A stretch of 64,000 nt of DNA from Escherichia coli (lineage in GTDB: Bacteria; Pseudomonadota; Gammaproteobacteria; Enterobacterales; Enterobacteriaceae), in NCBI RefSeq assembly GCF_045037415.1, contig NZ_CP173438.1; one strand, given 5' to 3'. This document shows positions 37,676 to 47,433 of the stretch, piece after piece. Numbering within the stretch: position 1 is the stretch's first letter; every line of letters begins with the position of its first letter. The translations under genes and the position numbers were made by a program. The notes beneath the pieces are model-generated. The model did not search any database and was not told where the DNA came from. It saw only the letters and a program-made list of their open reading frames with translations.

Positions 37676-38278
37676 ATGACATTTAAAAATTTACGTTATG
37701 GATTATCCAGCAGTGTCGTTTTGGCTGCCTCATTGTTCAGCGTACCCTCTTATGCGGCAACTGACAGCATTGGGCTGACCGTGATTACCACCGTAGAAAT
37801 GGGTACTTGTACCGCTACATTAGTAAATGACTCTGATCAGGACATTTCTGTTGTTGATTTTGGTGATGTATATATTTCTGAAATCAATGCCAAGACCAAA
37901 GTAAAAACATTCAAACTCAAATTCAAAGACTGTGCGGGTATCCCCAATAAAAAAGCGCAAATAAAATTAACCAAGCGAGCCACATGCGAGGGGACTGCTA
38001 ATGACGGTGCAGGGTTCGCAAATGGTTCCACAGCCACAGATAAAGCAAGTGCCGTCGCCGTTGAAGTCTGGAGCACCGAAACTCCGGCAACAGGGAGAGC
38101 AACACAATTTAGTTGTGTGACACCAGCATCTCAAGAGGTAACTATTTCCACTGCTGCCAATGCGGTTGTTTATTACCCGATGAGTGCTCGCCTGGTCGTT
38201 GAAAAAAATAAAACCGTAAGTAATGTCACTGCAGGTAAATTTTCTGCACCTGCCACATTTACAGTAACCTATAACTAA
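37676..38278 (+). CDS. yadL: fimbrial-like protein YadL
   Basis: 200-aa translation, signal peptide, pilin C-terminus ...ATFTVTYN. Confidence 0.8.
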   Translation: MTFKNLRYGLSSSVVLAASLFSVPSYAATDSIGLTVITTVEMGTCTATLVNDSDQDISVVDFGDVYISEINAKTKVKTFKLKFKDCAGIPNKKAQIKLTKRATCEGTANDGAGFANGSTATDKASAVAVEVWSTETPATGRATQFSCVTPASQEVTISTAANAVVYYPMSARLVVEKNKTVSNVTAGKFSAPATFTVTYN

Positions 38279-38304
38279 CAGACTGACAGATTCAGGAACT
38301 ATAT

Positions 38305-38901
38305 ATGCATCCCACTCAACGTAAGCTGATGAAGAGAATAATTCTGTTTCTGTCATTACTGTTTCCCATTACCTGTCCAGCGATCGCTGGACAGGATATT
38401 GACCTTGTTGCTAATGTAAAAAACAGCACTTGCAAAAGCGGAATCAGTAACCAGGGTAATATTGATCTTGGTGTCGTTGGGGTGGGATATTTTTCAGGTA
38501 ATGTTACTCCTGAAAGCTATCAACCAGGTGGAAAAGAGTTCACTGTCACTGTCTCAGACTGTGCATTACAGGGAACTGGCGATGTGCTAAATCAGTTACA
38601 TATTGATTTTAGAGCCCTTAGCGGTGTCATGGCTGCAGGCTCCAGGCAAATATTTGCCAATGAAGTGACAACCGGGGCTAAAAATGTCGGTGTCGTTCTC
38701 TTTTCCATTCAGGACCCGGCCAATATATTCAATGTTCTTAGTTCAGCGGGAAATTCTCGTTCAATCTATCCAGTAATGACTTCTGCCCTGAATAATTCGT
38801 CATGGAAATTTTATGCCAGAATGCAAAAAATCGATCCCGCGCTGGATGTCATATCTGGCCAGGTGATGAGTCATATATTAGTTGATGTGCACTACGAATA
38901 A
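38305..38901 (+). CDS. yadK: fimbrial-like protein YadK
   Basis: 198-aa translation, signal peptide, conserved order. Confidence 0.8.
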   Translation: MHPTQRKLMKRIILFLSLLFPITCPAIAGQDIDLVANVKNSTCKSGISNQGNIDLGVVGVGYFSGNVTPESYQPGGKEFTVTVSDCALQGTGDVLNQLHIDFRALSGVMAAGSRQIFANEVTTGAKNVGVVLFSIQDPANIFNVLSSAGNSRSIYPVMTSALNNSSWKFYARMQKIDPALDVISGQVMSHILVDVHYE

Positions 38902-38952
38902 TATATCAAAACAAACGACTGCTATTATGACAGCAGCGAATAGTGGGTAATC

Positions 38953-40206
38953 ATGAAGACATTCTTCAAATACTTTGTTTTTTTAGTACTATCCTGCTCT
39001 TGCTTTACAGCGATTAGTAAGGATACAAGTTTTCTTGTTGGTAACAATGCCGGGGTAGGCGATGGTAATTTCAACGGCCCGAGCACTGCGGCTCAGGTCA
39101 CTTTTAGATATGCATCAACAACCAATAATTTAGTTTTTTATAAACCTACTCAACTTGGCCCGACAGGTGTTAAATTACGCTGGGAACAATTAGATACAGC
39201 CAGCGGTGGCGGTTTTCTTTACTGTAATGCCTCTGACAGGGCAAATCCAGATGGACTAATGGATATTGAAAATGCCATGGCTGATTCTGGTAAAACCTAT
39301 GGTGGACATAAGTTATTTAAAACCTCTGTCCCAGGCTTGTATTACACTCTATTTATTGCAAAACTTTGGTCTGCATATTCAACAAAAACAACTATTAGCG
39401 ACTCTGGTTTATATATTGGAGATACCACACCACAAAAATTCCAGTGGATCATCACAGACCCTGATCTACAACATATCGGCTGCGATAACGCGATGCGGTA
39501 CGATAGATTCTGGGCCATCGGCGGTGTTGTACACGATCTTACGATTGAATTTTATACTGATACCGATTTTAACCCTACAACAAACCAGGACGTATCATTG
39601 TCCAGTAATTCGACATATCTTTATGCGTTTAAGGCCTACAGTCCCGGTTCTCGTGTTGTTGATCACAGCCATCACCTTTATATCGACTTTGATCTACTCA
39701 ATGTTAAATTAACTAACCCCACCTGCTTTACTGCTGTACTTACCGGAAAATCAGTAAGTGGTTCGACGGTAAAAATGGGAGAATATGCACCAGGGCAGAT
39801 TAAAAATGGTGCTACTCCGGTTCCTTTTGATATTTCTCTCCAGAACTGTGTTCGCGTTGGCGATATAGAGACAAAGCTATCTTCAGGGAAGCTGGGTACA
39901 GAAAATAAGCAACTCCTGGGTAACACTCTTACTGGAAGCGGCGCAGCAAAAGGCGTTGCGGTATTGATTGAAGGATTAGCAAACAGAAAAAGTGCCCTAA
40001 TGATACTGAAACCGAATGATTCAACTTCTGTTTATAAAGATAATACGGGTCAGGCTCAGGATCACGATTCAGATGCAATTTACCCAGAAGATCAAGGTAT
40101 AACATATCCACTTCATTTCCAGGCGACGTTAAAGCAAGACGGAAATATTGCTATCGAACCAGGAGAATTTAAAGCCACCAGTACTTTCCAGGTAACCTAT
40201 CCCTGA
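38953..40206 (+). CDS. yadC: fimbrial tip adhesin-like protein YadC
   Basis: 417-aa translation ending ...[10 protein letters not shown]; last gene of the yad operon. Confidence 0.8.
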
Positions 40207-40318
40207 TAACATTGTGGCACCGTCTGGTAATGGCGGTGCCACAATAGATAAATCATTGCCCCCACCAATGTGGCTGATAAAATGCCAGACAGCACGACAT
40301 TACTTATCAGGATACGTT

Positions 40319-41113
40319 ATGAAACCAACCACTATTGCTTCATTGCAAAAATGCAAACAAGAAAAAAAACGTTTCGCGACCATCACTGCTTACGATTATA
40401 GCTTCGCAAAACTGTTTGCCGAAGAAGGACTTAACGTCATGCTGGTCGGCGATTCTCTGGGCATGACGGTTCAGGGGCATGACTCCACGCTACCGGTTAC
40501 CGTTGCTGATATCGCCTACCACACTGCCGCCGTGCGTCGCGGCGCGCCAAACTGCCTTCTGTTAGCAGACCTGCCATTTATGGCGTATGCCACGCCGGAA
40601 CAAGCCTTTGAAAACGCCGCAACGGTAATGCGTGCCGGAGCCAACATGGTCAAAATTGAAGGCGGTGAGTGGCTGGTAGAAACCGTACAAATGCTGACCG
40701 AACGTGCCGTTCCAGTTTGTGGTCATTTAGGCCTAACCCCACAGTCAGTAAATATTTTCGGTGGCTACAAAGTCCAGGGGCGCGGCGATGAAGCGGCCGA
40801 TCGACTGCTCAGCGATGCATTAGCCTTAGAAGCTGCTGGGGCACAACTGCTGGTACTGGAGTGCGTGCCGGTTGAACTGGCGAAACGCATTACCGAAGCA
40901 CTGGCGATCCCGGTTATCGGTATTGGCGCAGGCAACGTCACTGACGGGCAAATCCTCGTGATGCACGACGCGTTCGGCATTACCGGCGGTCATATTCCTA
41001 AATTCGCCAAAAATTTCCTCGCCGAAACGGGCGACATCCGCGCGGCTGTGCGGCAGTATATGGCTGAAGTGGAGTCCGGCGTTTATCCGGGCGAAGAACA
41101 CAGTTTCCATTGA
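40319..41113 (+). CDS. panB: 3-methyl-2-oxobutanoate hydroxymethyltransferase
   Basis: ORF 40214..41113; start moved to [11 protein letters not shown] (264 aa). Confidence 0.95.
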
Positions 41114-41124
41114 GGAGTGACGTT

Positions 41125-41976
41125 GTGTTAATTATCGAAACCCTGCCGCTGCTGCGTCAGCAAATCCGCCGCCTGCGTATGGAAGGTAAGCGCGTGGCGC
41201 TGGTGCCCACCATGGGTAACCTGCACGACGGCCATATGAAGCTGGTCGACGAAGCCAAAGCCCGCGCCGATGTGGTCGTCGTCAGTATTTTCGTTAACCC
41301 AATGCAGTTTGACCGCCCGGAAGATCTGGCACGTTATCCACGGACCTTGCAAGAGGACTGCGAAAAGCTGAACAAACGTAAAGTGGATTTAGTTTTCGCG
41401 CCTTCGGTAAAAGAGATCTACCCGAACGGTACAGAAACCCACACCTATGTTGATGTTCCTGGTCTTTCCACCATGCTGGAAGGTGCCAGCCGTCCGGGAC
41501 ATTTTCGCGGCGTTTCGACTATTGTCAGCAAGCTGTTCAACCTGGTCCAGCCGGACATCGCTTGCTTCGGCGAAAAGGACTTTCAGCAACTGGCGCTGAT
41601 CCGCAAAATGGTTGCCGATATGGGCTTTGATATTGAGATTATCGGCGTACCGATTATGCGCGCCAAAGACGGTCTGGCGCTGAGTTCCCGTAACGGTTAT
41701 CTGACGGCGGAACAACGCAAAATTGCGCCCGGTCTGTACAAGGTTTTAAGTTCGATTGCCGACAAATTGCAGGCTGGCGAACGGGATCTCGATGAAATTA
41801 TTGCCATTGCCGGGCAAGAACTGAATGAAAAAGGCTTCCGCGCCGATGATATTCAGATTCGTGATGCCGACACATTGCTGGAAGTCTCTGAAAACAGCAA
41901 ACGCGCAGTGATTCTGGTAGCCGCCTGGCTTGGCGATGCTCGCCTGATCGACAACAAAATGGTCGAACTGGCGTAA
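41125..41976 (+). CDS. panC: pantothenate synthetase
   Basis: ORF 41110..41976; GTG at 41125 gives the known (M)[12 protein letters not shown]-terminus, 283 aa. Confidence 0.9.
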
Positions 41977-42057
41977 TGCTTAACTGGCGCTACGGCTGAT
42001 GGCGCCAGCTATTCATTGCCACGTTATCTGTAAGCGATTATTCATAACGCAGACAAC

Positions 42058-42255
42058 TTAGTTAATCATTTTATCAATCTCAGCAAGAGGTAAATTTGCC
42101 ATCTCTGCAACGTCTTCCCGAGACATTCCTTTACTCAGAAGACGCAGGGCCAGTCTTACCTTCTGGAGTCCCTCTTTATATCCCTTCTGAAATCCCTTCT
42201 CTTCAAACCACTGCGCCAACGTCTGCCTGGTTTCTCTCCGTGTCTTTATTTCCAT
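42058..42255 (-). CDS. 65-aa ORF paralogous to the C-terminal tail of the adjacent Rpn nuclease (possible free-standing Rpn tail / RpnS-like small protein)
   Basis: Translation ...TLAQWFEEKG...LALRLLSKGMSREDVAEMANLPLAEIDKMIN aligns with the last ~65 aa of the 306-aa RpnC-like protein; 78-nt DNA segment 42073..42150 matches 42339..42416 at 75/78. Confidence 0.4.
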   Translation of the reverse strand: MEIKTRRETRQTLAQWFEEKGFQKGYKEGLQKVRLALRLLSKGMSREDVAEMANLPLAEIDKMIN

Positions 42256-42323
42256 ATGTTCCCTTAATTATCTGGTCAGTTAACAATAACAATTATCTGG
42301 CTATAACTGATAATGCAGATAAC

Positions 42324-43244
42324 TTAGCTAATCAGCTTATCAACCTCAGCAAGAGGTAAATTTGCCATCTCTGCAACGTCTTCCCGAGACATCCCTTTAC
42401 TCAGAAAACGCAGGGCGAATTCCTGTCTTACTTCCTGTCTAACCTCTTGTATTACCTCCTGTCTTACCTCCTGTCTTACCTCCTGCCTTCCCCTCTCTTC
42501 AAACCACTGCGCCAGCGTCATCATAGACTCCCCTCCCGTTTCCCTGTCTCGCAACACACCATAAAACAAATCCGCTTGTTCAGTATGACCGCGTTGCAGC
42601 ATATAGTTTTGCATGGCAACTAACTGACTTCCGCTAGTGTACCCTTCGTCAATCAGCGTGACCAGTTGCTCCAGCAATAACATTAAGTCGCGCTGGCGAA
42701 TATGCTTTTGCAGTAGTTCGAGAATCGCAATCCGCCGGTGCTGCATGATTTCGTCATCCGGCGTGATGGTGATATCCACCAGCGGGAAAGGGTTGTTGTA
42801 AACGCGTCGCGCCAGCTCCGGCGAGTAAAACATATCAAACCAGCACATTGAGAGCGGATAAGGTGTGGCCTCGCCCTGATAAAACAGAATCGGCACCACC
42901 AGCGGCAGCTTATCGTGATCCGCCTCCAGATGCCGGTGCATGGCGGCAATGGCATAGCGCATCATGCGAAAGGTCATTTTCTTATCCGGCTTGCTTTGGT
43001 GTTCAATCACAACATGCAGATAACCCGTACTACCCTGCATCTGTACGGAATAGAGCACGTCAGTGCTGTGCCCTTTCAGGCTTTCTTCAATAAAACTCCC
43101 CGACTCAAGATGCAGCGTGTCGAGGTCACACAGTTCGCGTAGCTCCGCTGGCAAATGGATATCCAGAAAGTCGCGAGCCGTTTCCGCATGCATTAAAAAT
43201 TGTTTAAACACCGCATCATGCGGTGTGGTACTCGGTGCATCCAT
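42324..43244 (-). CDS. rpnC: recombination-promoting nuclease RpnC-like (YhgA/transposase_31 family, PD-(D/E)XK)
   Basis: 306-aa translation; position between panC and panD matches yadD/rpnC of K-12; C-terminal RQEV tandem repeats. Confidence 0.8.
   Translation of the reverse strand: MDAPSTTPHDAVFKQFLMHAETARDFLDIHLPAELRELCDLDTLHLESGSFIEESLKGHSTDVLYSVQMQGSTGYLHVVIEHQSKPDKKMTFRMMRYAIAAMHRHLEADHDKLPLVVPILFYQGEATPYPLSMCWFDMFYSPELARRVYNNPFPLVDITITPDDEIMQHRRIAILELLQKHIRQRDLMLLLEQLVTLIDEGYTSGSQLVAMQNYMLQRGHTEQADLFYGVLRDRETGGESMMTLAQWFEERGRQEVRQEVRQEVIQEVRQEVRQEFALRFLSKGMSREDVAEMANLPLAEVDKLIS
42421..42492 (-). repeat. six tandem 12-nt units (tcctgtcttacc-like) inside rpnC 3' region encoding (RQEV)n
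   Basis: Read directly: tcctgtcttact tcctgtctaacc tcttgtattacc tcctgtcttacc tcctgtcttacc tcctgccttccc. Confidence 0.85.
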
Positions 43245-43517
43245 CTCCCCTGCCTTCCGTGTTGTCTTGCGTGAAGGCAGTATCCAGTCAAGGTGTGCCG
43301 TCGTCAGCCGCCTCTTTAGTGTTTACCGAGCAGCGTTCAGATAAATTTCAATTGGTTACAGGCGTTACATGGCACGCTTCGGCACGGTACGCAAACTGCT
43401 GATGCAAATGCCGTCAGATGAGTAGACACTAAACAAAAATCGGGCAATACTGCGTGAGAATTTCCTCAAAGCAGGCATCGCCTGCTTCGTTAACGACAGG
43501 GTAGAAAGGTAGAAGTT

Positions 43518-43898
43518 ATGATTCGCACGATGCTGCAGGGCAAACTCCACCGCGTGAAAGTGACTCATGCGGACCTGCACTATGAAGGTTCTTGCGCCAT
43601 TGATCAGGATTTTCTTGACGCAGCCGGTATTCTCGAAAACGAAGCCATTGATATCTGGAATGTTACCAACGGCAAGCGTTTCTCCACCTATGCCATCGCG
43701 GCAGAACGCGGTTCGAGAATTATTTCTGTCAACGGTGCGGCGGCCCACTGCGCCAGCGTCGGCGATATTGTCATCATCGCCAGCTTCGTTACCATGCCAG
43801 ATGAAGAAGCTCGCACCTGGCGACCCAACGTCGCCTATTTTGAAGGCGACAACGAAATGAAACGTACCGCGAAAGCGATTCCGGTACAGGTTGCCTGA
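43518..43898 (+). CDS. panD: aspartate 1-decarboxylase proenzyme
   Basis: 126-aa translation ([29 protein letters not shown]...), pyruvoyl self-cleavage site G-S present. Confidence 0.95.
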
Positions 43899-43901
43899 TT
43901 G

Positions 43902-45131
43902 TTATCCCTGCGGCTGGTTACTCACCAGCCGCGACATCGTCTCCAGCGAATCTGTTCTTAAGATATAAAGTCGTTTTAGTAACAACGGATTATCCCCCGG
44001 TTTTACTTTGCCTTTCATGGTCGTCACAGCCAGGTGAAATCCGGCTTCTTTTGCTGCCTTCACGGCTTTGTCATTAAATCCGCCAAATGGATAAGAAAGA
44101 TACAAAACATGTGGATTAAATTGCGCCAGAGCGCGGCGTGAACGTGCAAAATCAAACAGAATATTGTGCTCACTACGGCTCAGCAATATAGGCCGCCGAT
44201 AACCATCTATCCGATGCAAAAAATGAGTATGTGACTGGAAATCAAATACATCGCGAATTTCGTTAAGTTCAGAAACGCTCATAAATTGCAGCGATTTTGG
44301 GTTCCATTTCTGCGGGTGACGTTTGATGCGCGAGGTAACAATAAACGCCGTCGCCTTCATGCCATATTGTTTCAACACAGGATACGCATAGCGGCTCACC
44401 GACTTGAGGCCATCATCAAAGGTAATCACCACCGCTCGCGCAGGGAGATTGATCTTATTCTTCACGTAACCTTCCAGCTGCGCCATGCTCAGTGTCGCGT
44501 ATCCCCTGTCGCGCAGCCAGGCCATCTGGTTATTGAAAGCGCGTACCGAGGTGGTCGTCGAAGTATGGCGAAAACGGGTGTTTTCTTCATCGCGCAAAAT
44601 ATGGTGATAGGTTAGCACCGGCAGGCCATTATCGGGTTGGGCATCCAGCGCGCTGATATAGGCCAGTCGATCGCCAATACGGATCTGATACCAGGTTTGA
44701 TTTAACCTGTCTTTCAGTTTATGCAAAATCGGGTAGCGCAAATTGTCCGCCAGTACTCCAAATGGCGCACTGCCCACACTCGGCGCGTTATAGACCTGCG
44801 TATCTTTCCAGGTAACTAAGTTCTGATTACTCAGCGGCTTGTTGAGGTCACCCAAACCGTCTTCAACTTTTTGTCGCCCCTGAACCGGCTCGAGATGCCC
44901 TTTATCGATAAACCCTTTGCCAAGGCCAAAATTAAATACGTAATAACTTGCGGCAGTGGGCTCCACGGCAATGATTTGTCCGGCCCGAATATTCCCCACC
45001 GTCACCATCTTGTCACCAATTTGCGCCCAGACCGCGGCATTTTCGATGGTTTGCATATAACGGGCAGGTAACGCGGCACTGACACTTGCGGTAAACAGCA
45101 TCAGCAGGAGAATAACAGCTTGTTTGTACAT
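43902..45131 (-). CDS. yadE: polysaccharide deacetylase family protein YadE
   Basis: 409-aa translation with signal peptide, NodB-type deacetylase region. Confidence 0.85.
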
Positions 45132-45194
45132 GAAAAAATAACCGAGGGTGAAACAACGCTTTTATTGTAGCAAAAGCGTCATCAGAATCGCGGG

Positions 45195-45635
45195 TTAATA
45201 CTCATACAAATTATGTTTGAGGACGAAAGGCGGATTTTTTTGTTGCTGGTGCCAAAGACTACTCACCTCCGGCGCACCCAGTTCGACAATACGCTCGCGA
45301 AACGCTGAACTGGTCATGGTTTCACGGCAAGCCATCATCTGTTCAATTAACGGTAACGTGACACCAGAAATCACTTCGCAACGGGAGTGTTTGTGGCTTA
45401 ATAATGAAGCCACGCGGTACGGTGGCGCTCCGGCTATATCGGTTAAGAAAATAACGCCTTCACCAGAGTCCGTTTCATGCAAGGCATCGCACATCATGCG
45501 GCTGAGCATATTAGAGCTTAATCCGCGCCAGAAATTCACGGCCCGGCACTGAAGAAGTGCCCCATGTTTTTTCTCCAGCGCATCCAGTATCTCTTGCGCC
45601 CGGTCATCGTGACAGGTAATTACCCAACCTAACAT
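45195..45635 (-). CDS. yadI: PTS EIIA (mannose family)-like protein YadI
   Basis: 146-aa translation (MLGWVITCHDDRAQE...). Confidence 0.85.
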   Translation of the reverse strand: MLGWVITCHDDRAQEILDALEKKHGALLQCRAVNFWRGLSSNMLSRMMCDALHETDSGEGVIFLTDIAGAPPYRVASLLSHKHSRCEVISGVTLPLIEQMMACRETMTSSAFRERIVELGAPEVSSLWHQQQKNPPFVLKHNLYEY

Positions 45636-45739
45636 CGCCTTCCTCCTTAGCCGAAAATCAGTCTACCCTGACCATTGTTGATAAAGGGTGATAGCCGTCA
45701 AAACTCCTCTCCCCCAAATCCAGAGGAGAGGAAATAGCC

Positions 45740-46510
45740 TTAGCTACGCAAACCACGTCCACGTTGGATCAGCGACCAACAGATCAAATAAAACGCCACA
45801 ATAAAGACCACCAGTACGCCAAAGGTAGTGACCAGCGGAACATCATTGATACCGAGGAAGCCGTAGCGGAAACCACTGATCATATAAACGATTGGGTTCA
45901 GGTGCGACAGCCCTTGCCAGAACGGCGGCAACAAAGTCAGGGAGTAAAACACCCCGCCCAAATACGTGAGTGGCGTTAACACAAAGGTTGGCACCAGGCT
46001 GATGTCATCGAACGTTTTAGCAAACACGCCGTTCAGCAAACCCGCAAGGGAGAATAGCACCGCAGTGAGCACCAGGGTTAAGGCAACGAATACCCACGAA
46101 TGCACCTGAAACGGCACAAAAAACAGTGAAATTGCCGTCACCAGAATACCAACAAACAGACCACGCGCCACGCCACCACCGACATATCCGGCAATAATGA
46201 CATGAGTCGGAACCGGCGCTACCAGCAGCTCTTCAATATTACGCTGGAACTTGGCACCAAAAAATGATGACGCGACGTTAGCGTAGGCGTTGGTGATCAC
46301 CGACATCATGATCAGCCCCGGTACGATGAACTGCATGTAGCTGAAGCCATGCATATCGCCAATACGCGAACCAATCAGGTTACCGAAGATAATAAAGTAA
46401 AGGGTCATGGTGATGACTGGCGGCACCAGCGTCTGCACCCAGATACGCATAAAGCGATGGATCTCTTTCGCCCAGATGCTTTTTAGCGCCACCCAGTAAA
46501 GATGCATCAT
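45740..46510 (-). CDS. yadH: ABC-2 type transporter permease YadH
   Basis: 256-aa hydrophobic translation; overlaps the yadG stop. Confidence 0.9.
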   Translation of the reverse strand: MMHLYWVALKSIWAKEIHRFMRIWVQTLVPPVITMTLYFIIFGNLIGSRIGDMHGFSYMQFIVPGLIMMSVITNAYANVASSFFGAKFQRNIEELLVAPVPTHVIIAGYVGGGVARGLFVGILVTAISLFFVPFQVHSWVFVALTLVLTAVLFSLAGLLNGVFAKTFDDISLVPTFVLTPLTYLGGVFYSLTLLPPFWQGLSHLNPIVYMISGFRYGFLGINDVPLVTTFGVLVVFIVAFYLICWSLIQRGRGLRS

Positions 46511-47433
46511 GTGCGATCTCCTTGTTTTTCATTAACCAGTGAAACAAACAGCTCTTCCAGACGGTTAGCTTTGTTACGCATACTTAATACCTGAATGCCC
46601 TGCTCACTTAACTGCGTAAATACGCTGTTGATGCCCTGCTCACGCAGCACTTCAACTTCCAGCGTGGCGGTATCTACCAGTCGATACTGATAGCCATCGA
46701 GCTTCGGTAACGGACTTTTCGGTGCGAGATCGAGAATAAAGGTTTCTGATTTCAGCTTCGCCAGCAGCGCCTTCATCGAAGTATTTTCCACCAACTCACC
46801 GTGTTGAATAATGCCGATATTGCGGCACAGCATTTCTGCTTCTTCCAGGTAGTGTGTGGTGAGAATGATGGTGGTGCCTTTGTCGTTTAAATCCTTCAAA
46901 AAGCCCCACATTGAGCGGCGAAGTTCAATATCCACGCCTGCGGTCGGTTCGTCGAGAATCAGTAGTTTAGGTTCATGCATTAACGCACGGGCAATCATTA
47001 AACGGCGCTTCATCCCGCCAGATAACATACGCGCACGTTCGTTGCGTTTTCCCCATAGATCGAGTTGTTTAAGATACTTTTCGCTGCGAATGTACGCTTC
47101 TTTGCGCTCCACACCGTAGTACCCTGCCTGATTCACCACAATTTGCTGCACGGTTTCAAACGGGTTGAAGTTAAATTCCTGTGGCACCAGACCCAACTGA
47201 CGTTTAGCGTTTACGACATCTTTCTCGAGATCGTAACCAAATACGCTGACCCGCCCGGAGGTTTTATTTACCAGAGAGCTGATAATACCGATAGTGGTCG
47301 ATTTTCCGGCCCCGTTCGGCCCGAGAAGCGCATAAAAATCACCCGCTTCGACCTGCAAATCGATTCCACGAAGCGCCTGAACGCCGCCTGGATAGGTTTT
47401 TTTAAGCTGTTGAAGTTCCAGTGCAATGGTCAT
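46507..47433 (-). CDS. yadG: ABC transporter ATP-binding protein YadG
   Basis: 308-aa translation, Walker A GPNGAGKST, signature LSGGMKRR. Confidence 0.9.
   Translation of the reverse strand: MTIALELQQLKKTYPGGVQALRGIDLQVEAGDFYALLGPNGAGKSTTIGIISSLVNKTSGRVSVFGYDLEKDVVNAKRQLGLVPQEFNFNPFETVQQIVVNQAGYYGVERKEAYIRSEKYLKQLDLWGKRNERARMLSGGMKRRLMIARALMHEPKLLILDEPTAGVDIELRRSMWGFLKDLNDKGTTIILTTHYLEEAEMLCRNIGIIQHGELVENTSMKALLAKLKSETFILDLAPKSPLPKLDGYQYRLVDTATLEVEVLREQGINSVFTQLSEQGIQVLSMRNKANRLEELFVSLVNEKQGDRT

Follow-up and report, generated by a model that had tools for sequence, protein, structure and literature searches.

Why would a toxin whose antitoxin is its own tail be accompanied by a second, separately encoded copy of that tail? 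This question is raised by a 64,000-nt stretch of Escherichia coli DNA (contig NZ_CP173438.1; hereafter the window), in which the gene for the Rpn nuclease RpnC is followed on the same strand by a small open reading frame (ORF) whose 65-aa product resembles the end of RpnC. We consider it likely that this small ORF, rpnCSs, is a free-standing paralogue of the intragenic antitoxin RpnC_S of the RpnC toxin-antitoxin/antiphage nuclease, with a tail that is decoupled from, and does not match, that of its neighbor. The arrangement is already known: it has been reported under the name rpnCSs (Zhong et al., 2023, PNAS 120:e2307382120; PMC10400941), and finding it here is a rediscovery. While the existence, origin, and naming of the extra copy are in the literature and in RefSeq, what we add is a comparison of the mismatch between the two tails. 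The elements concerned are:

42324..43244, minus strand: rpnC (yadD), the full-length Rpn nuclease RpnC_L, 306 aa (ORF, TIGR01784 profile, RefSeq WP_000339933.1)
42324..42524, minus strand: internal frame rpnC_S, 66 aa (from the sequence; start region identical to K-12)
42256..42323, minus strand: spacer from the rpnC stop to the start of the small ORF, 68 nt (from the sequence)
42058..42255, minus strand: rpnCSs, free-standing 65-aa copy of the RpnC tail with a 12-residue leader of its own, MEIKTRRETRQT (ORF, BLASTP, TIGR01784, RefSeq WP_000404123.1)

Rpn nucleases, recognized only recently as a toxin-antitoxin and antiphage system, use the tail of the toxin itself as antitoxin. According to the main text of Zhong et al. 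(PMC10400941), RpnS tails are translated from internal starts and block the toxic full-length RpnL, as a sequence-only reading of the window, made by a model without database searches, had correctly stated. The RpnS tail carries hypervariable four-residue repeats in its long first helix, and in RpnC one extra repeat in only one of the two partners abolished neutralization (PMC10400941, Fig. 4D). The intragenic RpnA_S, RpnB_S, RpnC_S, and RpnP2_S have a domain homologous to the product of the small ORF, with a long repeat helix and a small helical unit, and they bind RpnL by way of the tail common to both, with a specificity for repeat number (PMC10400941). Because they are translated from a start inside rpn, they share the repeats of the toxin. 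By contrast, the free-standing copy starts at a site of its own, carries a separate leader, and has repeats that vary independently, and the obligatory matching of toxin and antitoxin is therefore lost, which bears on how the specificity of these systems evolves.

The homology of the small ORF to the rpnC tail is evident at both the protein and the DNA level. Its product aligns by BLASTP with RpnC residues 239-306 (41/68 identities, 10 gap positions, E 2e-22) and matches the C-terminal end of the TIGR01784 profile (positions 213-272 of 273, E 3.4e-9). The nucleotides at 42073..42150 and 42339..42416 are identical at 75 of 78 positions, and a 19-nt block, TCTTCAAACCACTGCGCCA, occurs exactly at 42200 and 42496. 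On all these points, as on the coordinates and lengths of the two ORFs and the 68-bp gap between them, the sequence-only reading was accurate. A repeat finder delimits the duplication as follows:

42034-42150, partner 42300-42416 (no strand assigned): downstream repeat arm D2, 117 nt, 90% identical
42153-42223, partner 42449-42519 (no strand assigned): second, more diverged arm D3, 71 nt, 75% identical
42409..42504, minus strand: tandem 12-nt units, family D1, in helix 1 of the rpnC tail (described in PMC10400941)

The D2 arm takes in the helix-turn-helix-like end of the tail with its stop codon and runs on for some 24 nt, and the D3 arm spans the TLAQWFEE block and the repeat region. Between the two arms, the 12-nt units encode hypervariable four-residue repeats (RQEV/IQEV), whose number in the rpnC tail varies among strains to give a variable segment of 13 to 53 aa. 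The duplicated unit begins at the TLAQWFEE codons. Upstream of that point, neither the spacer nor the first 34 nt of the small ORF resembles rpnC beyond chance (local alignment against 500 shuffles). We rejected the idea that the leader derives, with divergence, from the part of rpnC that precedes the internal start, since 132 of the 500 shuffles aligned locally as well. The copy appears to have arisen when roughly the final 200 bp of rpnC, beginning with the TLAQWFEE block and reaching some 24 nt beyond the stop codon, were duplicated in tandem; a ribosome-binding site, an ATG, and a 12-codon leader would have been gained afterwards. Identity as rpnCSs and origin by duplication appear nearly certain from the sequence.

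The published rpnCSs (PMC10400941, Fig. 2I) is the same gene, a small ORF directly downstream of rpnC with variable four-residue repeats, present in some strains but not in K-12. The window differs from it in no respect of kind; it holds one allele, of 65 aa with a 19-residue variable segment. As in the description of RpnSs genes in the main text of PMC10400941, we find tail homology and a separate ORF with its own start, on the same strand and immediately downstream, a layout present in 23 haplotypes; the repeats, placed there 8-20 residues after the Met in helix 1, begin here at residue 20. The K-12 counterpart rpnESs (ypaA) has the same layout, a free-standing Rpn tail just after the nuclease gene, at the paralogous locus rpnE and with an independent origin. 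Each downstream copy is reported to derive from its own upstream gene, with RpnESs clustering with RpnE_S and RpnCSs with RpnC_S (PMC10400941). Small stand-alone proteins with DUF4351 (PF14261) or HTH_Rpn_C (PF27070) domains in other bacteria are comparable, and in some species RpnS as a separate gene is annotated DUF4351 (PMC10400941); membership of the present protein is established through its homology to RpnC and not by profile score. The main text of PMC10400941 contains no expression or function test of rpnCSs, and our literature search found no later paper on the function of the RpnSs downstream copies.

To assess how far the two tails match, we compared 49 loci, corresponding to 30 distinct haplotypes that include ones without the small ORF or only partly recovered. 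The variable segment was defined as the residues between AQWFEE and (F/L)L(S/N)KGM and was compared between the internal and the free-standing tail in the 23 distinct haplotypes with both. Segment lengths are unequal in 22 of these 23. In the window the internal and free-standing segments measure 29 and 19 residues, other haplotypes have 33/19, 37/23, 29/17, 13/21, and 53/21, and the sole equal pair (29/29) consists of unrelated repeat sequences. An identical free-standing allele can adjoin rpnC alleles of differing repeat counts (37 and 53; 29 and 33). Each tail varies independently of the other, with no co-variation. They also differ in repeat type: in the window, rpnC has RQEV-type repeats and the small ORF has repeats of the KGFQ/KGYK type, while strain CFT073 has KGIE-type repeats in rpnC and RQ(A/E)V-type repeats in the small ORF, so that the types are swapped relative to the window. 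Among free-standing homologues the variable segment, composed of KGFQ, KGYK, KGIE, and RQEV units, is 11 to 29 residues long.

These results bear directly on the most durable alternative, that the free-standing tail is a second dose of cognate antitoxin, extra or separately regulated, that neutralizes the resident RpnC_L in the manner of RpnC_S. Such a role would suit its close kinship to the RpnC tail, the last 30 residues being near-identical in this strain. A commentary that mentions the second copy suggests that decoupling enhances regulatory flexibility (PMC10400984), and the corresponding protein RpnESs is made in K-12 (PMC10400941). However, the variable helix is 10 residues shorter than that of RpnC_L and RpnC_S in this strain and of another repeat type, the lengths fail to co-vary across haplotypes, and a single extra repeat abolished neutralization in the published assay. 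Given the unequal lengths and this one-repeat rule, a plain extra dose of cognate antitoxin is therefore unlikely, and dosage control, which the sequence-only reading had offered alongside tail swapping, is weakened. From the same comparison, it is doubtful that rpnCSs efficiently neutralizes the resident RpnC_L.

Under the preferred explanation, a decoupled and non-matching paralogue of RpnC_S, the product would fold into a long helix 1 with four-residue repeats followed by a small helix-turn-helix-like unit, as in RpnS, and would pair with Rpn tails through helix 1. With a repeat segment unlike that of the resident RpnC (19 versus 29 residues, and of another type), it would not simply be a second cognate dose. 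Instead, the tail copy may have come out of unequal recombination and gene conversion between the two tails and may in turn feed these processes, by which tails would be swapped or fused and the specificity of toxin and antitoxin changed. The distribution of tail types is consistent with such exchange. Coding sequences of rpnC with KGFQ-type tails exist, rpnC fragments and internal-start ORFs carry KGFQ (Ss-type) tails (P0062, P0056, P0065, P0066), and free-standing copies carry a tail of the K-12 RpnC type (P0045, P0068). Recombination between the two tails very probably occurs, judging from these sequences, and the tail swapping that the sequence-only reading had proposed fits well, with the same tail types found in either position across strains.

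A further step, which we regard as rather doubtful, is that the systematically non-cognate tail represents a stored cassette of alternative specificity. In that case the nuclease and its internal antitoxin would both acquire a new set of repeats through one homologous exchange across the conserved TLAQWFEE and LSKGMSREDVAE blocks, much as cassette switching operates at hsdS specificity genes and pilin loci, which the proposed tail exchange would resemble. If true, this would let the defense system escape phage counter-measures. The main text of PMC10400941 neither proposes nor tests mismatched tails or a switching pair, and its figures S3 and S6 may already show repeat variation in the Ss copies. 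With 1555 complete genomes and many allele pairs, the locus is a convenient natural test case.

One metagenomic contig has more than one free-standing tail. In L044 (ERZ27229452 k115_66508, 814 nt), two tandem tail ORFs lie at 42-221 and 290-499, each after the same spacer, and the first consists of the Ss leader and an internal tail of the O145 type, as expected for the reciprocal product of a fusion-making unequal crossover. The two-copy junction was not found in one piece among complete E. coli genomes. The three-tail array is unconfirmed, and is possibly an assembly artefact.

Is the small ORF likely to be expressed? Within rpnC, the rpnC_S frame starts at an in-frame ATGATG pair (42524-42519) with GGAGG at about 42536-42532, which bears out the Met pair noted in the sequence-only reading. 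In K-12, RpnC_S synthesis was shown by ribosome profiling and sequential peptide affinity (SPA) tagging (PMC10400941); since the start region is identical here, we infer that rpnC_S is expressed in this strain as well. The small ORF is preceded by UAAGG (42266-42262), at a distance of 6 nt from its ATG. All sampled intact copies retain the ATG, the UAAGG, and the leader, and the length variants of 59-77 aa are all in frame. A consensus scan of the minus strand of the spacer found no sigma-70 consensus site, and a terminator scan and RNA fold found no terminator-like hairpin between rpnC and the small ORF. The only such structure downstream of rpnC, which is also the sole strong local hairpin, lies beyond the small ORF:

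41984..42008 (no strand assigned): G+C-rich hairpin between panC and the small ORF (terminator scan; fold of 41970-42340, minus strand)

The same hairpin directly follows rpnC in K-12, and it is probably a terminator common to the convergent transcripts. We dropped the possibility that the small ORF forms its own transcription unit, as the spacer has neither a sigma-70-like site nor a terminator and the RNA fold of the wider region is not unusually stable (z = -1.24). With no promoter consensus and no terminator between the ORFs, the small ORF is therefore most likely co-transcribed with rpnC_S from the internal rpnC promoter reported for K-12. The shared transcript would be translated at UAAGG-N6-ATG and would end at the hairpin before panC. 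On balance, it is somewhat more likely than not that the rpnCSs protein is made.

The spacer also contains two exact copies of CCAGATAATT on the minus strand (42300-42291 and 42275-42266), 25 nt apart, which flank a TTGTTATTGTTA tandem upstream of the ribosome-binding site of the small ORF. The pair is conserved in every 68-nt spacer listed, and may mark a site of protein binding or be left over from the formation of the spacer.

Across the 49 loci, every copy of the small ORF is intact and in frame except one. In E. coli AF10 (L012, NZ_OZ546911.1, locus ~1090-1215), an IS3-family insertion sequence (IS) element follows codon 12, so that only MEIKTRRETRQT remains, fused to IS sequence; rpnC is intact in this strain. 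In CFT073, O145, and other strains PGAP labels the gene a pseudogene ("missing N-terminus") despite the same ATG and open frame, because it is compared with full-length Rpn and not because of a defect in the ORF. Ratios of non-synonymous to synonymous polymorphism (pN/pS), computed pairwise over alignable codons, are highest for the small ORF (0.45), lower for the internal tail (0.28), and lowest for the nuclease domain (0.16), which points to moderate constraint on the small ORF.

RefSeq naming of the gene is inconsistent, with "hypothetical protein", "RpnC/YadD family protein", "transposase", and pseudogene among the labels used (L001, L003-L011, L016, L017); start and frame are intact throughout.

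The sequence-only reading had taken the additional segment to be strain-specific, which does not hold. Of 5426 complete E. coli genomes, 1555 (~29%) carry a junction diagnostic of the small ORF (42200-42335), chromosomal in all of them, and these carriers include sequence type ST131, CFT073, and Nissle 1917. By comparison, rpnC itself is present in essentially all complete E. coli genomes. The estimate in the same reading of about 70 bp for the K-12 yadD-panC spacer proved close, at 73 bp with no small ORF. In a protein search, free-standing homologues turned up in E. coli, E. marmotae, and other Escherichia; they are 59-77 aa long and begin with the leader M(E/D)IKTRRETRQT. In the E. marmotae and cryptic-clade loci the gene lies at the same site between rpnC and panC. 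The spacer and leader are 93-97% identical between the window and these loci (panC, ~92%), and the 68-nt spacer is near-invariant in the 13 RefSeq loci carrying it, with three variable positions. Because of this distribution and the identity of spacer and leader relative to panC, the free-standing tail gene is, on sequence evidence, old, of single origin, and repeatedly lost. The duplication is shared with E. marmotae, with a divergence about that of the flanking panC, and later losses, as in K-12, would reflect either a deletion or the joining of the rpnC body with the downstream tail. Loss of the free-standing tail by deletion or fusion has been reported (PMC10400941).

We then considered the predicted structure. 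An AlphaFold2 model of the 65-aa protein (37 homologues; mean predicted local distance difference test score 73.7) has a helix at residues 6-41 kinked at 21 (6-20/22-41) and short helices at 46-52 and 57-64. At this medium confidence the model would fit what has been published on RpnS, the RpnA_S crystal structure having three helices of which the first is long. A Foldseek search of the PDB yielded no significant match (all E > 0.6); the weak best hits were helix-turn-helix domains, and RpnA_S was not among the top hits. Against PDB sequences, phmmer found no Rpn chain and gave weak scores only, to a designed repeat protein and spartin. A Pfam-A scan of the protein gave no significant family and no PF27070 (best DUF2802, E 0.0039; best helix-turn-helix family, E 0.04), while several close homologues carry weak precomputed matches to PF27070 HTH_Rpn_C.

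Several observations weigh against the reading of rpnCSs as a decoupled, non-matching paralogue of RpnC_S. Unequal lengths are expected by chance when both tails vary widely, so the comparison shows an absence of co-variation and not avoidance of matching, and the published specificity test concerned one artificial repeat in K-12 RpnC, such that natural Ss variants may still bind (PMC10400941). The protein has no significant Pfam family or solved-structure match, and its fold rests on a medium-confidence model. The gene is missing from K-12, the strain of the published experiments, and from 71% of complete E. coli genomes, in one strain it is interrupted by a tolerated IS3 insertion, and the pN/pS of the small ORF exceeds that of both the internal tail and the nuclease domain, a comparison confounded by gene conversion and based on a small sample.

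A second alternative is that the small ORF is an inert leftover of unequal crossing-over at the repeat-rich rpnC 3' end, neutral and neither made nor used. The absence of the gene from most genomes, the tolerated insertion, and the relaxed pN/pS would all be expected, as would the PGAP pseudogene flags (CFT073, O145, others) and the lack of a promoter consensus of its own. Against this, conservation across Escherichia species is no lower for the ATG, UAAGG, 12-codon leader, and spacer than for panC, and all sampled copies but the IS-disrupted one are intact in frame, with the gene's own leader being the only part absent from the published rpnC tail. Moreover, the pseudogene flags stem from comparison with full-length Rpn, and the product of the analogous ypaA, RpnESs/YpaA, was detected in K-12 by SPA tagging (PMC10400941). 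We thus regard an inert leftover as quite unlikely. That the product is a DNA-binding autoregulator, a small helix-turn-helix-like protein that controls transcription of the locus by binding the spacer CCAGATAATT repeats or other operators and does not bind the nuclease, is very improbable: its best hits in structure and profile searches, though weak, are helix-turn-helix DNA-binding domains, HHpred relates RpnS to helix-turn-helix motifs (PMC10400941), and two conserved CCAGATAATT copies are present, but no similarity is significant (Foldseek E > 0.6; Pfam helix-turn-helix E 0.04), DNA binding by RpnS is not reported in the main text of PMC10400941, and the CCAGATAATT repeat could be chance or a remnant. 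Overall, the interpretation in the sequence-only reading is supported.

The neighborhood is that of the E. coli panB-panC / rpnC(yadD) / panD-yadE region, with panC, on the plus strand, ending at 41976, 81 nt from the stop of the small ORF. The 306-aa protein matches TIGR01784 ("Rpn family recombination-promoting nuclease") over residues 8-304 with 271.1 bits against a cut-off of 52.1. It scores under the equivalog cut-offs for RpnA and PRK09956, so the assignment is at the family level; PF04754 (Transposase_31) is the Pfam counterpart, and the K-12 orthologue is RpnC in RefSeq. Both WP_000339933.1 and WP_000404123.1 are annotated in RefSeq genomes identical to the window over a 1.5-kb stretch, and the latter, the exact 65-aa protein, is a separate CDS (coding sequence) named "RpnC/YadD family protein". 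No PADLOC model matched either protein, and Rfam detected no RNA family within 38000-47000.

The nuclease frame is split in two Logan assemblies, L032 (SRR27381294; 136+153 aa) and L047 (ERR11595342; 124+161 aa), in which the downstream small ORF is intact. The split could reflect inactivation of the toxin with the tails retained, or sequencing error.

Two variants of the intergenic region were also seen. A divergent allele in L040 and L041 (GCA_031091935.1, GCA_040040565.1; 1457-1501), with the leader MDITARRETRQT, has a spacer of 43 nt instead of 68, and only about half of the window's 68-nt spacer aligns with it. The loci of LR-31 (L014) and O157 AR-0429 (L015) are without the small ORF and have a panC-rpnC spacer of ~290 nt (locus ~278-575). 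The insert in this spacer has a palindromic core, CCCCAGTCACTTACTTATGTAAGCTCCTGGGGATT, and is a putative intergenic repeat of the ERIC/IRU (enterobacterial repetitive intergenic consensus/intergenic repeat unit) kind, which it resembles.

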